The notes: generated by a model from the sequence alone, not told the origin. Counted from the stretch's first letter, positions 1-11,380 are shown. The stretch: 11,380 bases of DNA from Escherichia coli (GCF_003334255.1 NZ_QOWU01000083.1); one strand, 5' to 3'. Numbers and translations: made by a program.

Positions 1-62
1 AATCGGTGGAGCTGCATGACAAAGTCATCGGGCATTATCTGAACATAAAACACTATCAATAA

Positions 63-575
63 GTTGGAGTCATTACCAAACAGGGATTATTTATTCTCTC
101 AGGCGAGAATAAAATAGACGAAGAATGTTTCATTAATATAGTCCAAACGGCTGTCGCCATAAATAACATCGGTAGAGAATCTAATGGTTATATTTTAGTT
201 GGTGTTTCCGATACCAAAGCTACGGCAGACAGAGTTAAGACTTTATATGGTGTTACCCCTATTGAGTGCAATGGCTATTATATCAATGGAATTGATCATG
301 AAGCTGTAATTCAATCAAAAAACATAGATAATTACTTTCTGTTCATAAAACAAAAAATAGAATCATTTAATTTTAATGAGGCTTTGAAACAACAAATACT
401 AAAAGATATTTCATTATGTTCATATGAAGGACTGCATGTTTTAAAAATCGAAATAAAAAGTGTCGGAGAAGTCTGTCATTTTGAAAATAGGTATTATATA
501 AGACAAGGAACAGCTACGCATTTAATCACTGACGGTGAAGCAATTAGTAGTTTACACAGATTATATTACTCATAA
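63..575 (+). CDS. Start-less ORF with Schlafen/AlbA_2-like domain signature (possible truncated or disrupted gene)
   Basis: Frame is open from 63 to the TAA at 573-575 (171 codons) in AT-rich DNA, where long open frames are unlikely by chance. Translation contains ...CFINIVQTAVAINNIGRESNGYILVGVSD... and ...GLHVLKIEIKSVGEVCHFENRYYIRQGTATHLI..., which resemble the AlbA_2/Schlafen-type motifs (CAFANtxGGxLxIGVxD; ...YIRxGxxT) from memory. No ATG/GTG in frame; first canonical start is TTG at 384; in-frame TAA at 60-62 and all three frames closed within the first 62 nt. Confidence 0.35.
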   Translation, partial: VGVITKQGLFILSGENKIDEECFINIVQTAVAINNIGRESNGYILVGVSDTKATADRVKTLYGVTPIECNGYYINGIDHEAVIQSKNIDNYFLFIKQKIESFNFNEALKQQILKDISLCSYEGLHVLKIEIKSVGEVCHFENRYYIRQGTATHLITDGEAISSLHRLYYS

Positions 576-1278
576 TTACTTAAGCACTATGAAGGTATCA
601 TACACCTTCATAGTGTACTTTTTTACTGCGCTTTGGGGCTAAATTGTTTTTGTGAATAGCCAGAATATCGTGGCTACGGCGGCAATGGAAATATATGATC
701 TCTGCTGCCAGAGACTGGAGATGTAATTGGGGGCAGTTTGGATATCGAAAATTATTGTACTATAAGGGGTCCGCTTGAGGGGGCCGCTTGGAAAACGGAA
801 ATTTTCCCACGCTAAGAGAATTGAGTTGAACGAGTGGTTACATCTAGGCCAGCTAACTCACTGAACGTAAAGGCTGTACGAAATGTTCCGACCGTCCGAT
901 AACCATTTGGCTTACTTCCGTACATTTCCTTGCGTAGATGTACAGAATTGTACGATTTCGGACACCAAAACTGCTGTTGTCCCGGTGCATGAAGCTACTT
1001 TCCGGGTTGGTGGTACTGACTTTGGTGTTCTTAACGACGACGTTTTCAACTCTGAAAATCGCCTCTCTGCACGGGGATTTTTACCCCCCCATAGAGCCGT
1101 CATATAAATTCAAATTATTAACTTTGATGGTAGAATTATCTTAGGTTTGATAAAATTTTGAGCCGTCGCCGTTTACTTCACAGGATTCAATATAATGGCT
1201 AAATATACAGTTTGTGATTACCAATAAACTATTAGAAATAATGGGAATGGTTGTGCCAATCTCTATCTGGAGGTCTTA

Positions 1279-1500
1279 TTGCAGGGAACATCCACCCCAT
1301 CGTTACACCAATACAGAATTGCCCCCGATACAAGACATCCAGACATTAACCTAATAAAAGCGCACCTTGACGAGGGCTTTCAGCAGGCAAAGTCTGAGGG
1401 ATTAAAAGTAGAGATTTCAGATTATAAAGAACGTCTTTACCTGTACATTAGAACACCTGGTAATAACCTAATGCAATATTCTGGTTGCAGAGAAAAATAA
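1279..1500 (+). CDS. Hypothetical small ORF (73 aa, TTG start); weak resemblance to integrase N-terminal arm-type segment; possibly a remnant
   Basis: ORF track only; TTG start, no convincing RBS. Segment ...SDYKERLYLYIRTPGN... loosely resembles the D-G-x-GLYLxVxPxGxK motif of P4-type integrase N-termini. Speculative. Confidence 0.2.
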   Translation: MQGTSTPSLHQYRIAPDTRHPDINLIKAHLDEGFQQAKSEGLKVEISDYKERLYLYIRTPGNNLMQYSGCREK

Positions 1501-1607
1501 TACAGTCGCGCTGGATACGCTGACATTGACGCAGTTATATGATTTTCTGGCGTTGGTCAGTAAACCAGCTGCAGCCAAAACGGTGTAGTCCCTGACACAG
1601 GCGCCGG

Positions 1608-1844
1608 TCATTCTGTTAACTCATCCACGTATGGGATGAACAGTTGTTTCAGTTTGAAACCAGGGATGTCAGACGGATTTTTGCTGGCGAGTACGAAATC
1701 CGTTACGAACTTAATGGCCAGACTATTTATGTATTGCGCCTGTGACACACACGAGAAAACAGGTAGATTGTGTGTGAGGGCAACTTTAACATAGCCTGCA
1801 GGTGTTAATTCAGGAGCATTGTTATCAGACCAAATATTTTTCAT
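1608..1844 (-). CDS. Hypothetical protein (78 aa)
   Basis: ATG-initiated ORF on the minus strand in AT-rich DNA; weak RBS; divergent from the 1873-2154 ORF. No recognisable family. Confidence 0.3.
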
Positions 1845-1872
1845 TCCATTAAATAGTCTTGTAGGGGATAAA

Positions 1873-2154
1873 ATGAATTACGATGAAATAACGAAAATCA
1901 CTGCAGAACGTATTAGCGACTACATGACTGAAGCGGTTAATACAGACTCTAAATCTGTTGCGGAAATGTTTCATAACGCTGCATGGGGAGTGCTATCATT
2001 GTGGTTTGAACTCGTCACAAAAATAGATCTGGATATACATAAAAAGAACAGGTATGCAAGTTATGATTTTAGAAGAAAAATCGAAATGCAGCATGAAGAG
2101 TTTCAGAAAATGACAGAGCGTGAGCAAGTGCCTTTATTGAAATTGCCTGAATAA
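1873..2154 (+). CDS. Hypothetical protein (93 aa from ATG 1873; ORF track gives a TTG start at 1819)
   Basis: ATG at 1873 preceded by AGGGGA (about 1863-1868) at reasonable spacing; ORF ends TAA 2152-2154; followed by a strong hairpin at 2220-2266. No recognisable family. Confidence 0.4.
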
Positions 2155-2219
2155 CAGAGACAGTGCAAACGATTATTTCATAATAACGATTATGTAATGA
2201 CTGGTAAGAAAATAACTTG

Positions 2220-2266
2220 ATTGAGTTCCCTTTATCCAGCCTGATAGTGGATAAAGGGAACTCAAT
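2220..2266. terminator. Perfect 18-19 bp inverted repeat hairpin between convergent genes; likely bidirectional intrinsic terminator
   Basis: TTGAGTTCCCTTTATCCA (2221-2238) / loop GCCTGATAG / TGGATAAAGGGAACTCAA (2248-2265), exact reverse complements. Flanked by A/T-rich sequence on both sides. Lies between the stop of the + ORF (2154) and the stop of parR (2277, minus). Confidence 0.55.
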
Positions 2267-2276
2267 AATAATTGAA

Positions 2277-2630
2277 TTAATTTATTAGCTTCATCGCATT
2301 TTTTTTGGTCTCTTCATCACTTTTTTGCTCTTGTTGTGAAGAGGATTGAGTGACTATTGAAGAATTAAAATCGGCCATCTCTTTTGGAAATAGCGATCTC
2401 AATATATTCACGATATCTGAAAATGTGGTTTCTTTCGTCAGCAGCTCACATAAAAGGAAAGGGGTCCGGGGATCTTGTCTGTATAAGGCCAGACCTGCCG
2501 TCAGTGCGGCCCGGTTAAGGCGGCTTCGTTCCCCTTGCGGGATACTGTCCAGTGTATCACAAACAATTTTATCTGTTTGATTTACATCTGGATTTAGTTT
2601 GAAGGCAATGGTTCTGCGCTTGTCCATCAT
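2277..2630 (-). CDS. parR: ParR (StbB) centromere-binding adaptor protein of type II (actin-like) partition system
   Basis: 117-aa translation [54 protein letters not shown]... matches my recollection of plasmid R1 ParR. Lies immediately downstream of parM with a TAATG stop/start overlap, the known parMR operon arrangement. Confidence 0.9.
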   Translation of the reverse strand: MMDKRRTIAFKLNPDVNQTDKIVCDTLDSIPQGERSRLNRAALTAGLALYRQDPRTPFLLCELLTKETTFSDIVNILRSLFPKEMADFNSSIVTQSSSQQEQKSDEETKKNAMKLIN

Positions 2631-3592
2631 TAATTACCTATGAGATACATACCGTTAACTAAATCATATTGAGAGTTATTGGTTTTGAAAAAACGTTCAT
2701 CACGAATCTGTGTGTGTTTTTTTACTGCATCGCATATTAATTCTGCGCCACCGCCTATAACCATAACATGAGTATAACCAGAAAATTCATTGAGCGTATT
2801 TAATACACGTTGCTCAAGTTTACGAAGTGCTTCATTCATTGCTTCGGTGACTATTGATATTTTGTTCTCATCATTAATTCGTTGCTTCAGATAGTTATTA
2901 TCTTTTCTGTGAATGATTATATCGTCAGCAAGATAGCTACTTCCTTTTGTTCTCGCAAGAGAAAGGGCATCTTTTACTGCAGATGTAACCAGAGAGACAC
3001 CAAGAGATGAGTCTCCGTATATTTTACTGATCCCCGATAATTTCCCCATTACCTGAGAAATATCTAATGTGGTGCCCCCGAGATCTATAATTAATAAAGA
3101 ATCTAACTCATCCAGTTCTTGTAGAACTTCATAACCTGCCGGTATAGATTCAGGCATGACTTTTACATCTTTTATTGTGAATGTATCCCCGCCATTTAAT
3201 GTAATTTTTTTCCGGAAGTTTGCTTTCTTACGCTCAATATTTTCCGTATTGGGTTGGTTATTTCTGTCGTAATACTCTGTCAGAGGAAGTGTGCAAACAA
3301 TATCCACTTCGCTTACCGGCAGACCACTGGTCAGTAAGGCGTGATGCACTGCAACGACATTAACGTCGCTGTATTGCCATGCGATATTGGTTGTGACTAC
3401 AGCATCCGGGCTGATTGGATCAAATGAATACTGTTCGCCGTTCAGTGTGTAGTTAAAGACCTTTTTATCACCAAAAGAGACTGCCCACTCGCGTTTGAAG
3501 CTGTTCGGGCTAATGTGCTGTTTAATTGTTCCGTCGCTTTCCTGCCACTGTAGTTTGATGTTTGTTGAACCGTCATCAATGAATACCAACAT
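2630..3592 (-). CDS. parM: ParM (StbA) actin-like plasmid segregation ATPase
   Basis: 320-aa translation [22 protein letters not shown]...[14 protein letters not shown]...[11 protein letters not shown]... carries actin-fold phosphate-binding motifs (DDGSTN, DLGGTT, GGGA) and matches R1 ParM as I recall it. RBS AAGGAG lies upstream of the ATG at 3590-3592. Confidence 0.95.
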
Positions 3593-3607
3593 TTATAAAA
3601 CTCCTTA

Positions 3608-3772
3608 TGGTGTTTTTTTGGTGTGTGTTTGGGTATGTTTTGGGTTTTAAGTGGGTTTGTTTGTCAAGTTTACCCCATTTCAACCATCAATCAATGATTA
3701 TTTGTCTTGTTTTGGTGTTTTATTGGGTTGGGTATGGGTTGTTTTTGGGTTTTGTTTGGCGGGTAACAAAAG
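3608..3772 (-). promoter_or_regulatory. parC: parC centromere/promoter region: two blocks of about five 11-bp iterons flanking the parMR promoter
   Basis: 11-bp periodic T/G-rich repeats on the + strand (for example ttgggtatgtt, ttgggttttaa, gtgggtttgtt, then after a ~45-bp spacer ttgttttggtg, ttttattgggt, tgggtatgggt, tgtttttgggt, tttgtttggcg). The spacer, read on the minus strand, contains TTGATT-16 bp-TAAACT and TTGACA. Architecture matches established R1 parC (10 iterons around the promoter). Confidence 0.7.
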
Positions 3773-4108
3773 ATGTCGCCGGGCTCCTCTTTTTACTGCG
3801 CCGGCTGACGCGGCGCGGCAGGAACGCTGCCTGTGGTCAGTGTCCCGCGTCCGGCCGGGCACGGGACGGGCGCTTTTACCGCTCCCGGCTGGCGTTGGTG
3901 ACAGTGTACGCCAGCCCGTCGCCCTTTTCTGATGAACGCCCTTCAAGCCGCTTTCGCGGCATATCCTCGCCGTCAAAAAGACGACGGCTGCGGTATTCCA
4001 CGGTCGGCCTGACCCGTTACCGGACGCGGTGAACAGCCCACAGGCAGCGGGGAACGGGCACCACAGGGGTGCCCTCCCGGTGCCCTCTGTAAGAGAAGGA
4101 GTGCTGTT
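3773..4108 (+). promoter_or_regulatory. Long GC-rich untranslated leader upstream of the methyltransferase operon; candidate structured promoter/ssi-like element
   Basis: About 335 bp with no credible ORF (only overlapping R/P/G-rich frames on both strands). Shares the 13-mer TGAACAGCCCACA (4030-4042) with 8399-8411. Ends with RBS AAGGAG before ATG 4109. Confidence 0.3.
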
Positions 4109-4792
4109 ATGTCCCGTTTTATCCTGGGTGACTGCGTGCGTGTTATGGCCACGTTTCCGGGCAATGCTGTCGATTTCATCCTCACCGACCCGCCGTATCT
4201 CGTCGGTTTCCGTGACCGTTCCGGGCGCACCATCGCCGGCGATAAAACCGATGAATGGCTGCAACCAGCCTGTAATGAAATGTACCGCGTACTCAAAAAA
4301 GACGCGTTAATGGTGAGCTTCTATGGCTGGAACCGCGTCGATCGCTTTATGGCCGCCTGGAAAAATGCGGGATTCAGCGTTGTTGGTCACCTGGTCTTCA
4401 CCAAAAACTACACATCGAAGGCCGCATATGTGGGCTATCGCCACGAATGTGCCTACATCCTGGCAAAAGGCCGTCCACGTCTGCCACAAAACCCGCTGCC
4501 GGACGTGCTGGGCTGGAAATATTCGGGCAATCGCCATCACCCGACGGAAAAGCCCGTTACCAGCCTGCAACCGCTGATTGAGAGCTTCACACACCCGAAC
4601 GCAATTGTGCTGGACCCGTTTGCAGGCAGCGGCTCAACCTGCGTCGCCGCCCTCCAGTCCGGACGCCGGTATATCGGTATCGAGCTGCTTGAGCAGTATC
4701 ACCGTGCCGGGCAGCAACGCCTTGCCGCCGTGCAACGGGCCATGCAGCAGGGGGCCGCGAATGATGACTGGTTTATGCCGGAGGCTGCGTAA
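4109..4792 (+). CDS. Orphan DNA methyltransferase, N6-adenine/N4-cytosine beta class (PF01555-like)
   Basis: 227 aa. Motif IV DPPY near the N-terminus (LTDPPYLVG) and motif I near the C-terminus (VLDPFAGSGSTCVAA), the order typical of beta-class amino-methyltransferases. Good RBS AAGGAG before the ATG. No adjacent restriction endonuclease candidate. Confidence 0.85.
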   Translation: MSRFILGDCVRVMATFPGNAVDFILTDPPYLVGFRDRSGRTIAGDKTDEWLQPACNEMYRVLKKDALMVSFYGWNRVDRFMAAWKNAGFSVVGHLVFTKNYTSKAAYVGYRHECAYILAKGRPRLPQNPLPDVLGWKYSGNRHHPTEKPVTSLQPLIESFTHPNAIVLDPFAGSGSTCVAALQSGRRYIGIELLEQYHRAGQQRLAAVQRAMQQGAANDDWFMPEAA

Positions 4793-5014
4793 ATGAACTA
4801 TGCAGGACACGAAAAACTGCGCGCCGAAGTGGCGGAGGTGGCCAATGCCATGTGCGACCTGCGTACAACCATGAATGAGATGGAGCAGCGGTACAGCTTT
4901 AATGCCGACACCCTGCCGGAACGTCTGGTGCGTCAGACGCTGTTTCGCGCAAACCGCCTCCTGATGGAGGCATATACCGAAATTCTGGAACTGGAAGCGT
5001 GCTTTAAAGATTGA
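4793..5014 (+). CDS. Hypothetical protein (73 aa), translationally coupled to the methyltransferase
   Basis: ATG immediately follows the methyltransferase TAA (TAAATG); GGAGG lies about 10 nt upstream; GC-rich codon usage consistent with neighbours. No recognisable family. Confidence 0.55.
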   Translation: MNYAGHEKLRAEVAEVANAMCDLRTTMNEMEQRYSFNADTLPERLVRQTLFRANRLLMEAYTEILELEACFKD

Positions 5015-5027
5015 GAAGGAGACGAGA

Positions 5028-5462
5028 ATGTACGGAACATGCGAAACGCTATGCCGGGAGCTGGCAGTAAAGTATCCGGGAGACATGCCGCTGATGCTGG
5101 TTATCTGGTCCCCGGAAGAGATTCAGGCACTGGCTGACGGTATGGAAATTTCTCTGACCGGTCATGAAATCAGGACCGTCCTGGCACGCCTGGAGGACAT
5201 CCCGGAAGACCAGCGGATTGAGTCCGGTATTTCTTCCGCTGCGGTGATGGAGATTATCCGCAACGAGAGCGAAAACCGCCTGGTGACCGTCCCTGCTGAA
5301 CTGCTGGCGTCCCTGATTCAGACCGCTGAACAGGCATTGTGGAAACGTGAATGGGCCGCCCGGGATCATGGCCTCGCCGTCCCGGAATGCGTCACCCGCC
5401 GTCAGGAGGTGGTTAATCAGGCCCGCACCCTGCTGAAAAACAACACACACGAAAACGACTGA
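5028..5462 (+). CDS. Conserved plasmid protein of unknown function (144 aa; possibly DUF1380-like), paralog of 7179-7601
   Basis: RBS GAAGGAGACGAGAATG. Aligns by eye with the 7179-7601 product (MY.T...RE...SLT..E..TV..RL.D...RxVTVPA..L). The DUF name is recalled, not verified. Confidence 0.6.
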
Positions 5463-6289
5463 TGTTATCGCCGCCTGCCCTGCGGGCGGCGATACAGGGA
5501 GAACGCTTAATCATGAACGAAAACAGCACGCTGAACGCACTGATTTGTCGTCACGCCCGCAACCTGCTGCTGGCGCAGGGCTGGCCGGAAGAGACGGATG
5601 TTGACCAGCGTAACCCGAAGTATCCGGGCTGGATCAGCATTTATGTTCTGCTGGATGCGCCCCGGCTGGCGACGTTACTTATCAACCGTCACGGCGGCGT
5701 ACTGCCGCCGCTCCTGGCCTCCGCCATTCAGAAACTGACCGGAACCGGGGCGGAACTGGTACTGTCCGGCAGTCAGTGGCAGTCGCTGCCGGTACTTCCG
5801 GCAGACGGAACGCAGGTGTCTTTCCCGTATGCCGGAGAATGGCTGACCGAAGACGAAATCAGGGCTGTACTTGCGGCGGTGCGCGATGCGGTACGCAGTG
5901 TCAGTTGCCGGGTGGCAGAAGATGCGCGGCGTATCCGGGCGGCGCTGACCACCACCGGTCAGACGTTGCTGACTCGCCAGACGCGCCGCTTTCGTCTGGT
6001 TGTGAAGGAAAGCGATCACCCCTGCTGGCTCGATGAAGATGACGAAAACCTGCCCGTGGTGCTCGATGCCATCGTGAACCGGGGAGCACGTTTTTCGTCG
6101 GTGGAAATGTACCTGGTCAGCGATTGTATTGAGCATATCCTGTCCAGTGGGCTGGCCTGCGATGTGCTGCGTATACCGGATGAACCGCCCCGCCGCTGGT
6201 TTGACCGTGGTGTTCTGCGGGAGGTGGTCCGGGAAGCCCGGGCCGAAATCCGCAGCATGGCGGATGCCCTGGCAAAAATCCGGAAATGA
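5462..6289 (+). CDS. Hypothetical protein (275 aa; alternative start ATG 5513 giving 258 aa)
   Basis: ATG 5462 overlaps the upstream stop (TGATG). An internal ATG at 5513 has its own RBS (AGGGAGA). Long GC-rich ORF co-oriented with neighbours. No recognisable motif. Confidence 0.6.
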
Positions 6290-6706
6290 TGACGTTGGCG
6301 GGGTAAATCCCCGCCTTTTTCCTGCCGGTCCCCGGACAGAGCACAAAGGAAGTCGCCGCCGGCTCCGCTTTACCCGGCCATGCAGGGCATGGCCTTGTGG
6401 TTTTTCAGTTATGTGGCCTCAGCGTCGTGTGCGGGCTGTGCCGTGCCTCCATCTTAGCCGGGCTGGCAGGGATGCAAGGGTACGCTTCGCCGCTGCGGTC
6501 ACCCGGTCCCTCCTTCCCGTCTGCCGTGATTTTCCGGTCGTTCACCCGCTCAGATTTCGCGGTCTCACCCTCCAACTCCCGCCAGCCGTGTGCGTCAGGC
6601 TGCGGCTTCCCTTGCGCCCTGTGCATCCCCGCCTTATCGCCCGGCTTTTATGGAGGCACGGCACCGCCCGGTGTCGCGGAATATGTGAACAACGGAGGAA
6701 AACATC
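6290..6706 (+). promoter_or_regulatory. GC-rich about 415-bp untranslated region upstream of klcA; candidate structured promoter/ssi-like element
   Basis: No credible ORF (the 6129-6734 and 6397-6741 frames are R/C/W/P-rich and overlap). Ends with TGAACAACGGAGGAAAACATCATG (RBS GGAGGA before klcA ATG 6707). Confidence 0.3.
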
Positions 6707-7132
6707 ATGCAATATGCGAAACCTGTCACTCTGAACGTTGAAGAGTGCGACCGTCTCTCCTTTCTACCGTATCTGTTTGGCAACGATTTTCTGTATGCCG
6801 AGGCGTATGTGTACGCGCTGGCGCAAAAAATGATGCCGGAATATCAGGGAGGCTTCTGGCACTTCATCCGCCTGCCGGACGGTGGCGGTTACATGATGCC
6901 GGATGGCGACCGTTTCCACATGGTGAACGGTGCAAACTGGTTTGACCGTACCGTGAGTGCTGATGCCGCAGGCATCATTCTGACTTCCCTTGTGATTAAC
7001 CGCCAGTTGTGGCTGTACCACGACAGCGGGGATGCAGGACTGACCCAGCTTTACCGGATGCGCGATGCGCAGTTGTGGCGTCACATCGAATTTCACCCCG
7101 AATGCAACGCGATTTACGCGGCACTGGACTGA
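6707..7132 (+). CDS. klcA: KlcA/ArdB-family antirestriction protein
   Basis: 141 aa; ...[68 protein letters not shown]... matches my recollection of KlcA/ArdB (Antirestrict family) proteins on IncF/IncP/IncN plasmids. RBS GGAGGA 7 nt upstream. Confidence 0.85.
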
Positions 7133-7141
7133 TTAACGGAC

Positions 7142-7160
7142 GGGGCGGCAATGCCGCCCC
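7142..7160. other. Intercistronic GC hairpin (GGGGCGGC-AAT-GCCGCCCC) directly upstream of an RBS
   Basis: Perfect 8-bp GC stem with 3-nt loop, 10 nt after the klcA stop and immediately before AAAGGAGACGAGAACATG. No downstream T-run, so not a canonical intrinsic terminator. Confidence 0.5.
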
Positions 7161-7178
7161 TGTAAAGGAGACGAGAAC

Positions 7179-7601
7179 ATGTACTGTACTGTTAAAGAAA
7201 TTATCCGCGAAGTGCTGAACACAGACGTGCCGGACAGTGAATGCGTTTTTGCCGTGGTGCTGACCCGTGGGGATGTGCGTCACATAGCCCAGGACTGGAG
7301 TCTGACAGACGATGAGCTGGAAACCGTCATGCAGCGACTGGACGATGCCTTTGCGCATGGTGCGGATGTCAGCATTGTTCACGACGTTGTTCGTGAGCTG
7401 ATGGAAGAAAAGCGCGCCAGCCGTCAGGTGACAGTTCCGGCGGTGATGCTGGAAAAAGTGATGGCGCTGGCAGGCAGTGAAATGAAGCGCCTGTATGCCG
7501 TCGGGAGCGAGAACGGGGGCGACGGTGACGCATTCGTCAGGGAAGAACGCGAAGCAATGGACGTTGTGTTACAGGCGCTGGACGGGGAGCACATGTCATG
7601 A
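7179..7601 (+). CDS. Conserved plasmid protein of unknown function (140 aa; possibly DUF1380-like), paralog of 5028-5462
   Basis: RBS AAAGGAGACGAGAACATG nearly identical to that of 5028. Sequence similarity to the 5028 product along the whole length, including the shared VTVPA motif. Confidence 0.6.
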   Translation: MYCTVKEIIREVLNTDVPDSECVFAVVLTRGDVRHIAQDWSLTDDELETVMQRLDDAFAHGADVSIVHDVVRELMEEKRASRQVTVPAVMLEKVMALAGSEMKRLYAVGSENGGDGDAFVREEREAMDVVLQALDGEHMS

Positions 7602-7789
7602 ATATCAGCACAGAAACCCGCGAAATTCTGCGCAATTACAAAGCCGTGATTAATGCGCGGCGTCGTGAAATGGGGCAGAAACCGCTCACCACTGCGCAGA
7701 TTGTTGATGAAATCTGCGATTTTGTGGCGAATCAGCAGGCTGTATTCCTCGGCGGTCACTACATCCTTCAGGGCAGCATAAACAGGTGA
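7598..7789 (+). CDS. Hypothetical small protein (63 aa), translationally coupled (ATGA overlap)
   Basis: ATG 7598 overlaps the TGA of the upstream gene; co-oriented; no recognisable family. Confidence 0.45.
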   Translation: MNISTETREILRNYKAVINARRREMGQKPLTTAQIVDEICDFVANQQAVFLGGHYILQGSINR

Positions 7790-7957
7790 TACAGGGGCAG
7801 GCGGTGGAGGCCGCCTGTCAGCCCGCGCGAAAACCCCTGGCAGGCTGACGCCTGCCGGAAGGGAAGCGGGCCACGCTGGCGCGTCGCCCGTTACCCTTCC
7901 CGTCTGTGATGTGTCTGACTCAGGAGTGTTTCTTTCTTATGTTATGGAACTGTTCCT

Positions 7958-8058
7958 GATGTTGTTGTTCCTTTATCTACTGCTCTGATTCTGACTACTG
8001 CAGTGTTGTTCTGTCTGCCGGGCGCACCTTCGGCTCCCGGCTGCCTGGCGGCATCCGG
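7958..8058. repeat. Copy 1 of a repeated leading-region element (77-bp core with 1 mismatch to copy 2)
   Basis: Core 7982-8058 (GCTCTGATTCTGACTACTGCAGTGTTGTTCTGTCTGCCGGGCGCACCTTCGGCTCCCGGCTGCCTGGCGGCATCCGG) matches 11304-11380 with a single T/C difference. The upstream GATGTTGTTGTTCC (7958-7971) is also shared with 11247-11260. Confidence 0.6.
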
Positions 8059-8409
8059 TCGTCAGGCCCGACTCCGACAGGCAGCTGCTGGCGCACCTGC
8101 CAGTCTCCGCCGAACCCGCTGGCGCGGTTTCGGGCTGCCGCTACGGTCCGATGCGTGAAAACCCCTGGCTTGCAGCGACCGTTCCGGTCGCGCCGCCTCT
8201 GTCGCGCCGTGGCCTGCGCTCCCGGCATCCCGGCAAAAGGCCGCCGGGATGTAAGGGGCAACGCCGTTTCGCGCACGCGCTCTCCGTCGTTGCGGCGGGC
8301 CCCTGCTCATTGCCTGCCGGGTGCCACACACCCGTATGAGTCCCTGTCGCCGGGGGCTGATACAGCCACAACCTGCCGCACTGACTGTCCAGGGTAAATG
8401 AACAGCCCA

Positions 8410-8445
8410 CAAAATTTTTTACCCAAAACCCGGTAAAAAATTTTG
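8410..8445. repeat. Perfect 14-bp inverted repeat (CAAAATTTTTTACC / GGTAAAAAATTTTG) with 8-nt loop
   Basis: 8410-8423 and 8432-8445 are exact reverse complements; an AT-rich stem embedded in GC-rich DNA, immediately after the shared 13-mer TGAACAGCCCACA. Confidence 0.5.
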
Positions 8446-8729
8446 CGTTCTGCCCAGGACAGGTGCGTCAGGCCGTGGCAGTGATGCCCCTTGCGGCGAA
8501 GGTTCTCAAACGGGTGAAGTTCATACCACAGTGAATACAGCAGCAGGTTCCCGCGAAACGTCAAAACCGCGGCTCCCGAAACTCAACGGGTGATGTTCTT
8601 TAAAAATCAGGATTTATTTCAGGCTCCGGCAATACGCATTTATTTGTTCTGTCAGTCATCCGGCTGACAGGTAATGAGAACGCAGGAACAGAAGGAGGAA
8701 AACACCGGAAAGCGTCAGATGCAGATATG

Positions 8730-8753
8730 AAAAAAGCAGGTCAGGCACCTGCT
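8730..8753 (-). terminator. Terminator-like hairpin oriented for the minus strand (stem AGCAGGT/ACCTGCT, followed by T6 on the minus strand)
   Basis: On the + strand: AAAAAA-AGCAGGT-CAGGC-ACCTGCT. On the minus strand this is a 7-bp stem followed by TTTTTT. Located about 75 bp upstream of ATG 8827. Confidence 0.35.
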
Positions 8754-8826
8754 TAATCCACGCCGTAAGAATTGTGCGACCAATTTTGACGGCATTGTTA
8801 ACCAATTTGTCATAAGGAATCCATTT

Positions 8827-9057
8827 ATGACTGTAAGCATTGTTTCACCTTCCGCAGCGGCTGTAAAGCCCCGCCGTCATCCCCGTTTCAGACGCGAAGA
8901 CATCCCCACGCCGGAAATTGACCCCGTGTTGAAAGCCTTCGGGCGACACATAGCCCGGAGTTTTCACCGGGGGCGTGGTGTACACATCCCCGCCATGAAA
9001 AACACGGCTTTCGGGCAGGTGCTCCGCACACTCGAACTGAAACGCGCTTTTAACTGA
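8827..9057 (+). CDS. Hypothetical small basic protein (76 aa)
   Basis: ATG with AAGGA upstream; R/K/H-rich product; co-oriented and followed after 51 bp by the 453-aa gene. No recognisable family. Confidence 0.45.
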   Translation: MTVSIVSPSAAAVKPRRHPRFRREDIPTPEIDPVLKAFGRHIARSFHRGRGVHIPAMKNTAFGQVLRTLELKRAFN

Positions 9058-9065
9058 TGAGGTGA

Positions 9066-9085
9066 GCCGCCCCGCGAGGGGCGGC
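9066..9085. other. Intercistronic GC hairpin (GCCGCCCC-GCGA-GGGGCGGC) directly upstream of an RBS
   Basis: Same 8-bp stem sequence as the hairpin at 7142-7160; followed by AACAGACGGAAGGAGAACATTTTATG. Confidence 0.5.
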
Positions 9086-9108
9086 AACAGACGGAAGGAG
9101 AACATTTT

Positions 9109-10470
9109 ATGACATTAGCAGCAATCACCATGACCGCCCCGGAAGCCGCCAGCCCTGTGCAGATGTACCGCGCGACCTACTCACCGGATGACAACAAACT
9201 GCGCCTGTATGCCGTGTCACGTCTTGACCCGGAGACGTATAAAAAAGTGCATGATGCTGGTTTTCGCTGGGCACCAAAACAGGCGCTGTTTGTCGCGCCA
9301 GCCTGGACACCGGGCCGGGAAGACGTGCTCCTCTCACTTGCCGGAGAGATTGAGGATGAAGACAGCACGCTCGCTGAACGTCAGGAAGCACGGGCGGAGC
9401 GGTTTACCGGATACAGCGGAAAGCGGGCCAGTGAATCCGCACAGGCACTTGATGAAGTGGAAAGACTGGCCGCGATGATCCCGCCCGGTCAGCCCATTCT
9501 TGTGGGGCATCACAGCGAACGCCGCGCCCGTCGTGATGCGCAGCGTATTGAAAACGGCATGAAACGTGCCGTGATGCTCTTTGAACGTGCGGAATACTGG
9601 GAAGAGCGGGCGCGGTCGGCACTGCTTCACGCGAAGTATAAAGAACGTCCGGACGTTCGCTGGCGTCGTATCAAAAAAATCGAAGCTGATTTGCGCAAGG
9701 CTGAAAAGACCATCGCGCAGTCGCAGAAATATCTGACGATGTGGCGGGCTGAATCGCTGGATCTGAATATGGCAAAACTCATCAGCAGTCATGACCATAT
9801 CAGCGCCTGTTTCCCGCTGGATACGTATCCGCGCCCGGCAGAAAAAAGCCAGTATGAAGGGAGCCGGTCGTTATGGTCGGCCCTGGATGATGACATCATC
9901 ACCACGGAGCAGGCCCGCGAAATTGCGATCCGCTGTCATGAACGGCAGATTCAGCATCAGCAACGCTGGGTTAACCACTATCAGAACCGCCTGATCTATG
10001 AGCGTGCCATGCTGGACGAAAGCGGCGGCGTGGTTACCCGGACACAGGATTTTGAGCCGGGCGGACAGGTTTTCAGCCGGGGCGAGTGGCTGACCATCAT
10101 CCGCGTGAACAAAAGCAACGGGGCGGTGAGTTCAGTCACAACGCCGAATTACAGTTTTCTCGGGTACAGCGGCACGATGAAAGTGACGCCCGATCGCATC
10201 ACGGACTACAAAGCACCATCGGCAGAAGAGGCTGCCATCGCCAGCCAGGCCGCGAAGCGTCCGCCGGTAGTCAACTATCCGGGGGAAGGTTTCCGGGAAA
10301 TGACAAAGGCACAGTGGGCCGCCCTGCCCCGGGACTGTAAGGCCGTGCGCAGTGTGGCAGAAGCAGAAGACCACGGGGCATACCGCTACCGCCGCACAAT
10401 GGACAATAATTTCCGCCTGGTGAATGTGTATATCACCGACATGAAAATCACGGAAATCCCACAGAAATAA
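9109..10470 (+). CDS. Conserved plasmid protein of unknown function (453 aa; possibly the DUF3560 family, unverified)
   Basis: Strong RBS AAGGAGA; long ORF with GC-rich codon usage. Central region is highly charged (R/E/K-rich, probably helical). No catalytic motif recognised by eye. Confidence 0.7.
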   Translation: MTLAAITMTAPEAASPVQMYRATYSPDDNKLRLYAVSRLDPETYKKVHDAGFRWAPKQALFVAPAWTPGREDVLLSLAGEIEDEDSTLAERQEARAERFTGYSGKRASESAQALDEVERLAAMIPPGQPILVGHHSERRARRDAQRIENGMKRAVMLFERAEYWEERARSALLHAKYKERPDVRWRRIKKIEADLRKAEKTIAQSQKYLTMWRAESLDLNMAKLISSHDHISACFPLDTYPRPAEKSQYEGSRSLWSALDDDIITTEQAREIAIRCHERQIQHQQRWVNHYQNRLIYERAMLDESGGVVTRTQDFEPGGQVFSRGEWLTIIRVNKSNGAVSSVTTPNYSFLGYSGTMKVTPDRITDYKAPSAEEAAIASQAAKRPPVVNYPGEGFREMTKAQWAALPRDCKAVRSVAEAEDHGAYRYRRTMDNNFRLVNVYITDMKITEIPQK

Positions 10471-10475
10471 GGTAT

Positions 10476-10501
10476 ATCCCCCCGGGAAATCCCCGGGGGA
10501 T
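10476..10501. other. Intercistronic GC stem-loop (ATCCCCC...GGGGGAT) between the 453-aa gene and the downstream methyltransferase
   Basis: 10476-10482 ATCCCCC pairs with 10495-10501 GGGGGAT; the loop contains the palindrome CCCGGG. Followed by RBS GGAGA and ATG 10517. Confidence 0.45.
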
Positions 10502-10516
10502 GACGGAGATAATGAC

Positions 10517-11080
10517 ATGCACAGTCAGTTAAGAGAACGTATCCGGCTGATGCGCGCAAGGCTGGATAACGCCGCGCCGGTTGCTGAAATCCGGGCTGAA
10601 TCTCAGCTTTTTGTGACTCCTGCCCCGGTCTGTGATCGCCTGGTGACGCTGGCGGAAATCAGCAACCGTGATCACATTCTGGAACCCTCTGCCGGCACCG
10701 GGGCCATACTGCGGGCGATTCGGGATACCGCGCCGGAGGCCATGTGTGATGCGGTGGAGATTAACAGCGGGCTGGTCCGGTATCTGCGGGAAAATTTTAA
10801 CGGTGTCAGGGTACAGTGTGGCGACTTCATGGAATGGCAGCCGGTGCAGTATTACAGCCGGATCATTATGAATCCGCCGTTCAGTCACGGGCAGGATATC
10901 CGGCATATCCTGCGGGCTTTTTCCCTGTTGCGTCCGGGGGGCGTGCTGGTTGCCGTCTGTCTCAACGGGCCGCGCCAGCAGGAGAAGCTGTTACCGTTTT
11001 CTGACGTCCGCGAGGAGCTGCCGCGCGGCACGTTTGCTTATACCGATGTCCCGACGATGATTATTCGTTTGCGTGCCTGA
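10517..11080 (+). CDS. Small class I SAM-dependent methyltransferase with amino-methyltransferase NPPF motif (putative orphan DNA or RNA methyltransferase)
   Basis: 187 aa. Motif I-like LEPSAGTGAIL followed about 55 residues later by IMNPPFS (the (D/N)PP(F/Y) motif IV), i.e. a gamma-like order. Too short for a separate target-recognition domain. RBS GGAGA 7 nt upstream. Confidence 0.75.
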   Translation: MHSQLRERIRLMRARLDNAAPVAEIRAESQLFVTPAPVCDRLVTLAEISNRDHILEPSAGTGAILRAIRDTAPEAMCDAVEINSGLVRYLRENFNGVRVQCGDFMEWQPVQYYSRIIMNPPFSHGQDIRHILRAFSLLRPGGVLVAVCLNGPRQQEKLLPFSDVREELPRGTFAYTDVPTMIIRLRA

Positions 11081-11246
11081 TGACACAGGGCTGGCGGGAG
11101 GATAAATGCCCGTCTGTCCGCACCGGGAAAAGACCGCGCGCCGGTGGCGCTGAAAGGGGCCGCGCTCACGCGCCGCCCCTTTCATTACGCGGACGTTCTG
11201 ATGGGGGCTTCTGTCTTTTCAGACCTGTCATTTGTCTGTTACTGAT

Positions 11247-11380
11247 GATGTTGTTGTTCCTGCTACTGCTACTGCTACTGCTACTGCTCTTCTTTTTCCT
11301 GCCGCTCTGATTCTGACTACTGCAGTGTTGTCCTGTCTGCCGGGCGCACCTTCGGCTCCCGGCTGCCTGGCGGCATCCGG
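11247..11380. repeat. Copy 2 of the repeated leading-region element, truncated by the window end; contains a (TGCTAC)4-5 microsatellite insertion relative to copy 1
   Basis: 11304-11380 matches 7982-8058 (76/77). Between the shared GATGTTGTTGTTCC and the core there are tandem hexamers TGCTAC x4 plus TGCTC (11261-11289) that are absent from copy 1. Confidence 0.6.

Follow-up and report, generated by a model that had tools for sequence, protein, structure and literature searches.

Orphan methyltransferases in the leading regions of conjugative plasmids, and their interpretation as protective enzymes, have already been published. M.EcoGIX of the IncI1 plasmid pESBL is a beta-class enzyme with a catalytic DPPY motif; it places N6-methyladenine (m6A) promiscuously at SAY, on single strands only, and about 40% of the sites are modified, asymmetrically. 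It protects conjugating DNA and raises transfer into restriction-proficient recipients in an orientation-dependent manner, and its homologues are common in IncI1 and IncF plasmids (Fomenkov et al. 2020, PMC7736820; Yamaichi et al. 2015, PMC4288162). The DarB-type domains of polyvalent proteins have been classed as EcoKI/TaqI-like DNA adenine methyltransferases that invading elements use against restriction (Iyer et al. 2017, PMC5512222). Leading-region gene families have been catalogued by Samuel et al. 2024 (PMC11541004), who listed among others family 8 (K07319 methyltransferase, median open reading frame (ORF) position 21), family 26 (K07317/K00561 methyltransferase, 1957 members, position 11) and family 28 (DUF3560, 1913 members, position 12). 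Here we analysed two methyltransferase genes, MTase 1 and MTase 2, in an 11,380-nucleotide stretch of Escherichia coli DNA (GCF_003334255.1, NZ_QOWU01000083.1), which as a whole we call the window. By its sequence, MTase 2 is the catalytic half of a DUF3560-methyltransferase, which is split here into the gene ydbA and a gene of 187 amino acids.

A preliminary description of this DNA had read the two genes as orphan methyltransferases of different architecture, both without a restriction partner. Both ORFs are present, encoding 227 and 187 amino acids, respectively. MTase 1 has the beta order, with motif IV (DPPY, amino acids 27-30, nucleotides 4187-4198) preceding motif I (FAGSGST, amino acids 171-177, nucleotides 4619-4639). 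MTase 2 has motif I (EPSAGTGA, amino acids 56-63, nucleotides 10682-10705) ahead of motif IV (NPPF, amino acids 119-122, nucleotides 10871-10882), and its full order on a Rossmann-like fold, X - I - II - III - IV(NPPF/Y) - ... - VIII, is that of the gamma class. Chance would be far from producing such motifs. The claim that neither gene has an endonuclease-like neighbour also held: the nuclease families of Pfam, NCBIfam and PADLOC matched no other ORF in 3739-10470, and a cognate nuclease, sought with the same databases over 3739-11080, was not matched either. The only neighbours identified were DUF1380 (twice), an ArdB/KlcA antirestriction protein and DUF3560. Thus, 'no nuclease' means none that is recognisable; the function of several neighbours is not known.

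The relation between MTase 2 and DUF3560 was found by searching an MTase 2 profile against 1.84 billion cluster representatives. Most relatives at E ~1e-45 were proteins of 250-780 amino acids with the methyltransferase at the C-terminus, and the majority of the distant relatives were single proteins of about 650-690 amino acids in which a DUF3560 region is followed by the methyltransferase. Pfam DUF3560 was present at the N-terminus of 37 of the 55 long relatives, and homology to YdbA was detectable by BLAST in 79 of 135 representatives. YdbA itself matched Pfam DUF3560 at 1.1e-36 over amino acids 89-206. In one fused protein, P0131 (669 amino acids), residues 10-450 aligned with YdbA amino acids 22-444 (48% identity, E 2e-130) and residues 506-663 with MTase 2 (46% identity, E 6e-40), collinear with the order of the genes in the window. 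A search with a YdbA profile gave the same relation from the other side: 90 of its 120 best hits had a C-terminal MTase 2 homologue (median length 671 amino acids), and the remaining 30 were proteins of 447-580 amino acids, i.e. split forms. The two proteins of the window add up to 453 + 187 = 640 amino acids, near the fused median. We define a DUF3560-methyltransferase fusion family by an N-terminal YdbA-like region and an NPPF methyltransferase after it, encoded as a single protein or by adjacent, co-oriented genes; the locus belongs to this family in the second form. The small size of MTase 2 and its missing target-recognition domain are explained, at the level of gene architecture, because ydbA, the gene beside it, encodes the remainder of the enzyme.

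The two halves have stayed together where they are un-fused. In all six un-fused relatives that were checked (from Serratia, Pantoea and three metagenomic lineages), a DUF3560 gene lies directly upstream of the methyltransferase gene. The arrangement differs from one to the next: Serratia has genes of 456 and 190 amino acids, Pantoea has a three-way split into 191, 152 and 197 amino acids, one metagenomic lineage has overlapping genes, another has an extra ORF of 83 amino acids and an adjoining ArdC-N gene, and on a further contig the upstream ORF is truncated but recognisable as YdbA. As the split points differ and adjacency is kept, fission has occurred more than once, with linkage retained each time.

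Several E. coli proteins in which MTase 2 is joined to PsiA, PsiB, MTase 1 or a truncated YdbA were excluded from the evidence for natural fusion; at least the cases that involve MTase 1 and YdbA are deletion chimeras. P0020 (290 amino acids, 48 E. coli contigs) joins MTase 1 amino acids 25-180 to MTase 2 amino acids 54-187, with the overlap around motif I, which binds S-adenosylmethionine (SAM), and a chimera of this type would carry both DPPY and NPPF. On other E. coli contigs, P0108 and P0109 join MTase 1 amino acids 1-115 to MTase 2 amino acids 89-187, and P0113 and P0121 join the YdbA N-terminus to the MTase 2 C-terminus. One fused relative, P0153 (1453 amino acids), was dropped; by eye, its additional 800 C-terminal amino acids are low-complexity repeats.

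Family 8 of Samuel et al. corresponds to MTase 1; family 26 is most probably MTase 2, judging from its annotations and position, and family 28 most probably YdbA. Families 26 and 28 are nearly equal in size and occupy adjacent leading-region positions. Samuel et al. listed them separately, described DUF3560 as 'uncharacterized; methyltransferase domain protein' from structure hits, and did not state that the two are halves of one enzyme; we did not find such a statement elsewhere in the literature. Their family 14, 'putative DNA methyltransferase', was considered as MTase 2 and rejected: it is the DUF1380 family, and family 26 fits. That name was given from database names; by Pfam, the second DUF1380 family is DUF1380 only, and it has no methyltransferase motifs.

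Coordinates of the features discussed in the text, counted from the first nucleotide of the window.
Feature	Coordinates	Strand	Description
Class-3 ssDNA promoter region homologue	3770..4108	-	Precedes M.EcoGIX in pESBL; would form on the transferred (-) strand
MTase 1	4109..4792	+	Beta-class N6-adenine DNA methyltransferase; orthologue of M.EcoGIX (YfbB of R64, YfeA of F)
73-amino-acid ORF (YubE-like)	4793..5014	+	Same operon as MTase 1; PHROG 4830, 1e-33; Serratia homologue tagged Pfam YubE
DUF1380 protein (YcgB-like)	5028..5462	+	Annotated DUF1380 in pDEC5E-2
258-amino-acid protein (YchA-like)	5513..6289	+	PHROG 8919, 2e-141; no Pfam match
Terminator-like hairpin	6297-6315		3' of the 258-amino-acid ORF
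Class-2 ssDNA promoter region homologue	6380..6706	-	Precedes klcA and ardA in pESBL (PMC12672017)
KlcA/ArdB-type antirestriction protein	6707..7132	+	Pfam Antirestrict, 1.9e-26
Second DUF1380 protein	7179-7601	+	
63-amino-acid ORF	7598-7789	+	
Frpo-type (class-1) ssDNA promoter/primer repeat unit	7949..8595	-	Predicted; precedes the ydaB-ydbA-MTase 2 operon
76-amino-acid ORF (YdaB-like)	8827..9057	+	First gene of the cassette
YdbA	9109..10470	+	453-amino-acid DUF3560 protein; detached N-terminal part of the DUF3560-methyltransferase; proposed substrate-binding or scaffold partner
Stem-loop	10479..10499	+	8-bp all-G/C perfect stem, 5-nucleotide loop, read from the sequence; in the 46-nucleotide ydbA-MTase 2 spacer
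MTase 2 (YdcA-like)	10517..11080	+	187-amino-acid gamma-order NPPF amino-methyltransferase; catalytic half of the split enzyme
Next Frpo-type repeat copy, start (upstream of ssb)	11271..11380	-	Right boundary of the 3322-nucleotide cassette; continues in the full plasmid

MTase 2 has its own Shine-Dalgarno sequence, GGAG at 10505-10508. The stem-loop that lies ahead of it has no T-run, and it could modulate the relative translation or the stability of the two halves.

MTase 2 is a maintained enzyme and not debris, because enterobacterial plasmids keep both its length and its motifs. The homologues on these plasmids, down to 51% identity, are all about 187 amino acids long and show little or no variation in QLFxxP, EPxAGTG, NPPF and LPxGxFxYT. 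A set of 20 homologues (51-88% identity) conserves QLFVTP, EPSAGTGA, NPPF and LPRGTF. The catalytic and SAM-binding residues are invariant across split and fused forms alike, and at least 80% of MTase 2 was covered in 4989 of the 5000 best plasmid records. The AlphaFold model (predicted local distance difference test, pLDDT, 87.9) includes an N-terminal helix before the core. MTase 2 matched Pfam MTS at 4.5e-07, a Rossmann-fold methyltransferase family, and among proteins of solved structure the M.TaqI catalytic domain was the closest to it in sequence (2.5e-06; PDB 2ibs, 1aqi). In PADLOC, it matched mad2 at 1.3e-20, and the best of the Type II methyltransferase models reached 3e-11. Its PHROG matches were to unnamed families of giant phage proteins (1e-32 to 1e-21) and to phage families named DNA methyltransferase (4e-31 and 7e-26); the phage relatives, at 30-40% identity, include virion proteins. 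The family profile aligned with the methyltransferase domain of P1 DarB (amino acids 73-266) over all motifs (hhalign probability 93.9%, E 1.5e-07), and the alignments with M.TaqI and DarB include the gamma-class motifs X (TP) and VIII (LPxGTF).

MTase 2 differs from both of these enzymes. In M.TaqI, TCGA is read by a target-recognition domain of about 180 amino acids at the C-terminus, whereas MTase 2 has none and ends right after motif VIII. The preliminary description had noted that such a domain was lacking, and sequence and fold comparisons bear this out: neither MTase 2 nor YdbA matched a target-recognition or HsdS family, and MTase 2 stops 14 residues past motif VIII. What did not hold is the picture of a very small enzyme standing alone, as the rest of the enzyme is encoded next to it. 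The P1 DarB-type domains of phage and plasmid polyvalent proteins are like MTase 2 in being gamma-order domains that lack target recognition, are carried on a mobile element and are used at entry. However, MTase 2 is fused neither to LPD36 nor to an SF2/SNF2 helicase, and has as its partner DUF3560, a domain that a text search did not find among the polyvalent-protein domains of PMC5512222. Further, DarB is delivered as a protein whereas MTase 2 would be expressed in the recipient, and DarB has NVPF where MTase 2 has NPPF. We found no experimental study of the MTase 2 family in the literature on DUF3560, ydbA/ydcA and leading-region SAM-dependent methyltransferases.

The DUF3560-methyltransferase also occurs in unrelated mobile elements, near ArdC-N, RadC, LPD29/LPD30 and DUF2786 (L014 1089-4594; L005 4839-8174; L008 6674-10013). 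Genes of these kinds make up the early 'entry' set that is typical of conjugative elements and prophages. No endonuclease gene adjoined the MTase 2 relatives that were checked in other elements.

YdbA was modelled confidently by AlphaFold, with a pLDDT of 84.8. The model contains, in this order, a small alpha/beta domain (amino acids 20-83), long helical hairpins, DUF3560 among them (amino acids 88-304), a small beta-barrel (amino acids 320-359) and a C-terminal alpha/beta domain. Compared with solved structures, it resembled nothing beyond generic coiled coils. The DUF3560 segment is basic (isoelectric point 9.9), helical and rich in arginine, with many invariant arginines and an invariant GHHS loop (amino acids 133-136). 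A role of YdbA in nucleic-acid binding or as a scaffold is a reasonable inference.

The likely substrate of MTase 2 is adenine in DNA, because it matches M.TaqI, DarB, mad2 and phage DNA methyltransferases and hits Erm and KsgA only weakly. RNA, which had been raised as a substrate in the preliminary description, is still in contention as the weaker rival. In that case MTase 2, whether alone or together with YdbA, would methylate an adenine of host rRNA or tRNA in the manner of METTL5, Erm/KsgA or TrmN6, and would serve early reprogramming of the host, not antirestriction. Small NPPF RNA m6A methyltransferases do exist (METTL5-TRMT112 and archaeal PH1948), but they share only 15-23% identity with MTase 2, have an unrelated partner and gave no sequence-level family match with it; their context is ribosome biogenesis, whereas the MTase 2 gene is located among plasmid antirestriction genes. 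The NCBIfam scores for Erm and KsgA (34.7 bits against a cut-off of 212, and 30.5 against 171) are far too low for these curated cut-offs, and the matches to DNA methyltransferase families are many orders of magnitude stronger (mad2 1e-20, Type II 3e-11, phage 4e-31 and 7e-26). The alignments to M.TaqI and DarB extend across motifs X and VIII, and 187 amino acids leave no room for the C-terminal RNA-binding domain of Erm and KsgA. We consider an RNA substrate unlikely.

Two other readings concern the pairing with YdbA. The 187-amino-acid ORF might be the inactive remnant of a broken gene, or it might act alone while YdbA has an unrelated job. The splitting of a gene can begin its decay, internal-deletion chimeras of these very genes circulate in E. 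coli, and the whole cassette is missing from F and pESBL. However, both halves are intact in thousands of plasmids, the SAM and NPPF motifs and the length of about 187 amino acids are kept down to 51% identity, MTase 2 has its own ribosome-binding site, and adjacency has survived fission at different points in several lineages. This reading thus seems improbable to us. Alternatively, YdbA could be a nuclease or another DNA-processing enzyme, which would make the pair a restriction-modification-like or Type IIG-like module. In favour of this, YdbA has invariant polar motifs (GHHS, together with D28 and K30 of its N-terminal alpha/beta domain), some databases name the protein 'hydrolase' or 'HD superfamily hydrolase', and the order nuclease, helical linker, gamma-methyltransferase would resemble Type IIG. 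But YdbA matched no family of nucleases or hydrolases in Pfam, NCBIfam, PADLOC or, by sequence or fold, the PDB. The name 'hydrolase' was assigned automatically and has no support. The methyltransferase is not followed by a target-recognition domain, and the operon, placed behind an ssDNA promoter repeat, has the same orientation as antirestriction, ssb and psiB genes. A Type IIG-like role for YdbA found no support, and we regard a nuclease as very improbable.

MTase 1 belongs to the M.EcoGIX family by identity, by its beta motif order and by its location in the leading region behind a class-3 promoter region. It is 92% identical to M.EcoGIX of pESBL (WP_000086153.1) over 227 of 227 amino acids without a gap; the accepted homologues YfbB of R64 and YfeA of F have 94% and 91% identity (PMC7736820, PMC4288162). 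Its DPPY...FAGSGST order is that of M.EcoGIX and M.BceJIII, published single-strand-specific promiscuous m6A enzymes. It matched Pfam N6_N4_Mtase at 3e-39 and NCBIfam PRK13699 at 2e-150 (498.7 bits, cut-off 244). The M.EcoGIX module of pESBL (E. coli O104:H4) has the same genes 3' of the methyltransferase (73 amino acids, DUF1380, 258 amino acids, then klcA). The 18 substitutions between MTase 1 and M.EcoGIX fall mainly in amino acids 5-20 and 75-125, and activity has been published for the pESBL allele only. MTase 2 is unrelated to this family in both motif order and sequence.

In sum, the preliminary description was partly supported. It was right for MTase 1, a part of the finding that is already known, and it needs correcting for MTase 2. 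The location of both genes in a leading region is borne out by plasmid gene order. The suggestion that they pre-protect incoming DNA agrees with published work for MTase 1, as an orthologue of M.EcoGIX; for MTase 2, a protective effect is part of the model that we propose below.

The window is, as identified from sequence matches and gene order, the distal, first-transferred part of the leading region of a very common IncF conjugative resistance plasmid. Over positions 4000-11380 the identity to several of the listed IncF-type plasmids, from E. coli, Salmonella and Klebsiella, is 100%. This segment has matches in at least 5000 plasmid records, and at least 80% of it is covered in 2941 of these. 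A fully annotated, 100%-identical twin is pDEC5E-2 (IncFIA, MOBF, MPF_F). Its genes run parR, parM, DNA methylase, 73-amino-acid ORF, DUF1380 and 258-amino-acid ORF; then KlcA/ArdB antirestriction protein, DUF1380, ORFs of 63 and 76 amino acids, DUF3560 protein and class I SAM methyltransferase; and then ssb, DUF905, ParB-like, psiB, hok, DUF932, SLT and traM/oriT. All leading-region genes treated here are on the + strand, and therefore the transferred (-) strand is the template.

Homologues of known single-stranded DNA (ssDNA) promoter regions precede the operons of this region. The 341 nucleotides upstream of MTase 1 share 96% identity with pESBL and 97% with F; they hold a long inverted repeat (3825-3854 / 4020-4049), and the - strand of 3770-4108 gave a strong ssDNA fold of -97.4 kcal/mol (z = -4.6). 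The pESBL counterpart of this region is the class 3 ssDNA promoter, which has been mapped by 5' rapid amplification of cDNA ends, and the operons of the F and pESBL homologues of MTase 1 are induced early in transconjugants (PMC12672017). By homology, the 3770-4108 region may function as a promoter here as well. The second region, 6380-6706, shares 96% identity with the sequences upstream of klcA in F and in pESBL, and 94% with that upstream of ardA in pESBL; it has an inverted repeat (6432-6463 / 6639-6670) and an ssDNA fold of z = -4.9.

The ydaB-ydbA-MTase 2 operon is preceded by an Frpo-type unit of about 650 nucleotides, of which the plasmid has three copies with 91-92% identity (7949-8595; L001 19272-19917 and 24689-25313). 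Of the other two, one is found directly upstream of ssb and one upstream of the ORF ahead of DUF932. F has these latter two, at 93% and 83% identity to the unit in the window, and their positions in F are those of the Frpo ssDNA promoters of the literature (PMC12672017). The - strand of 7940-8470 gave an ssDNA fold of z = -6.8, and the unit at 7949-8595 is probably a promoter here too. No sigma-70 consensus promoter was found on the coding strand in 3500-11380, which fits expression from the single-stranded form but is no proof of it.

The start of the next copy, 11271-11380, is an 88% direct repeat of 7949-8058, so that the two copies, 3322 nucleotides from start to start, bracket the whole ydaB-ydbA-MTase 2 unit. 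A comparison of gene order showed that F and pESBL do not have this unit. Because the repeats bracket it and these plasmids lack it, ydaB-ydbA-MTase 2 behaves as an optional cassette, with its own Frpo-type copy at the start and the next copy at the end. Recombination between these Frpo-type repeats probably accounts for its gain or loss. The three copies in each plasmid are ready substrates for such events.

A chromosomal CRISPR spacer of Klebsiella pneumoniae matches the Frpo-type repeat at 8277-8308 (- strand) with three mismatches. The same spacer has been reported against intergenic plasmid sequence, with 2-4 hits per plasmid, and three further spacers against a DUF3560 gene and one against a SAM-methyltransferase gene are listed in the same work (PMC6965323). 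Thus, host CRISPR systems target the early-entering cassette.

The 73-amino-acid ORF keeps the same gene order in pESBL and F. The KlcA/ArdB ORF of pDEC5E-2 is WP_001198928.1, an accession identical to that of the pESBL protein. Pfam DUF1380 reached 2.4e-49 at best among the neighbouring ORFs scanned, and the two DUF1380 paralogues (5028-5462 and 7179-7601) are placed one in each of the first two operons. G+C content rises sharply from 0.32-0.43 on the parMR side (1-3500) to 0.56-0.66 in the leading-region genes (4000-11380), with its peak of 0.66 at 8001-8500, in the Frpo-type repeat. Just 5' of the start of parM, 3600-3760 contains two clusters of T/G-rich direct repeats with 11-nucleotide spacing (AT skew -0.37), which look like the parC centromere iterons of a ParMR partition system. 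No Rfam family reached its gathering score in a scan of the whole window.

Based on these results, we propose a model for the locus, which we consider probable as a whole: operons of the leading region that are read from ssDNA, MTase 1 as the orthologue of M.EcoGIX, and MTase 2 as the catalytic half of a split DUF3560-methyltransferase. The operons would be read from the transferred strand while it is still single-stranded in the recipient, each behind a hairpin-forming ssDNA promoter region. MTase 1, like M.EcoGIX, would put m6A on the single strand as it enters, at the loose SAY context, and this would partially blunt many restriction enzymes at once. YdbA and MTase 2 (YdcA) may be co-produced from one Frpo-driven transcript and may associate physically. 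In this association, YdbA would supply a nucleic-acid-binding or scaffold function in place of a target-recognition domain, and the complex would give the plasmid DNA that comes in a second layer of N6-adenine methylation. We also suggest, tentatively and with less than even confidence, that YdbA and the 187-amino-acid enzyme form a two-subunit adenine methyltransferase that has no target-recognition domain, in which DUF3560 is a nucleic-acid-binding or processivity module not recognised before and self-methylation at entry is not sequence-specific.

In Enterobacteriaceae, IncF plasmids are major carriers of antibiotic resistance, and the first minutes in a new cell decide the success of their transfer. 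MTase 2 is present in at least 5000 sequenced plasmids, yet we found no experimental work on it in the literature. Our results refine a known class of plasmid anti-restriction functions in a useful and testable way. If MTase 2 is half of an enzyme, ydbA and ydcA should be expressed or deleted as a pair; its being a half also explains why the small protein alone may look inactive, and provides a first functional lead for the widespread DUF3560. Should the pair methylate incoming DNA broadly, the cassette would be expected to take plasmids across restriction barriers that are closed to F-like plasmids without it. Finally, if the two-subunit enzyme suggested above is real, Proteobacterial plasmids, integrative and conjugative elements and prophages would methylate their own entering DNA without sequence specificity. 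This would be a second, mechanistically distinct system of 'blanket' methylation beside M.EcoGIX, and would give DUF3560 its first function.

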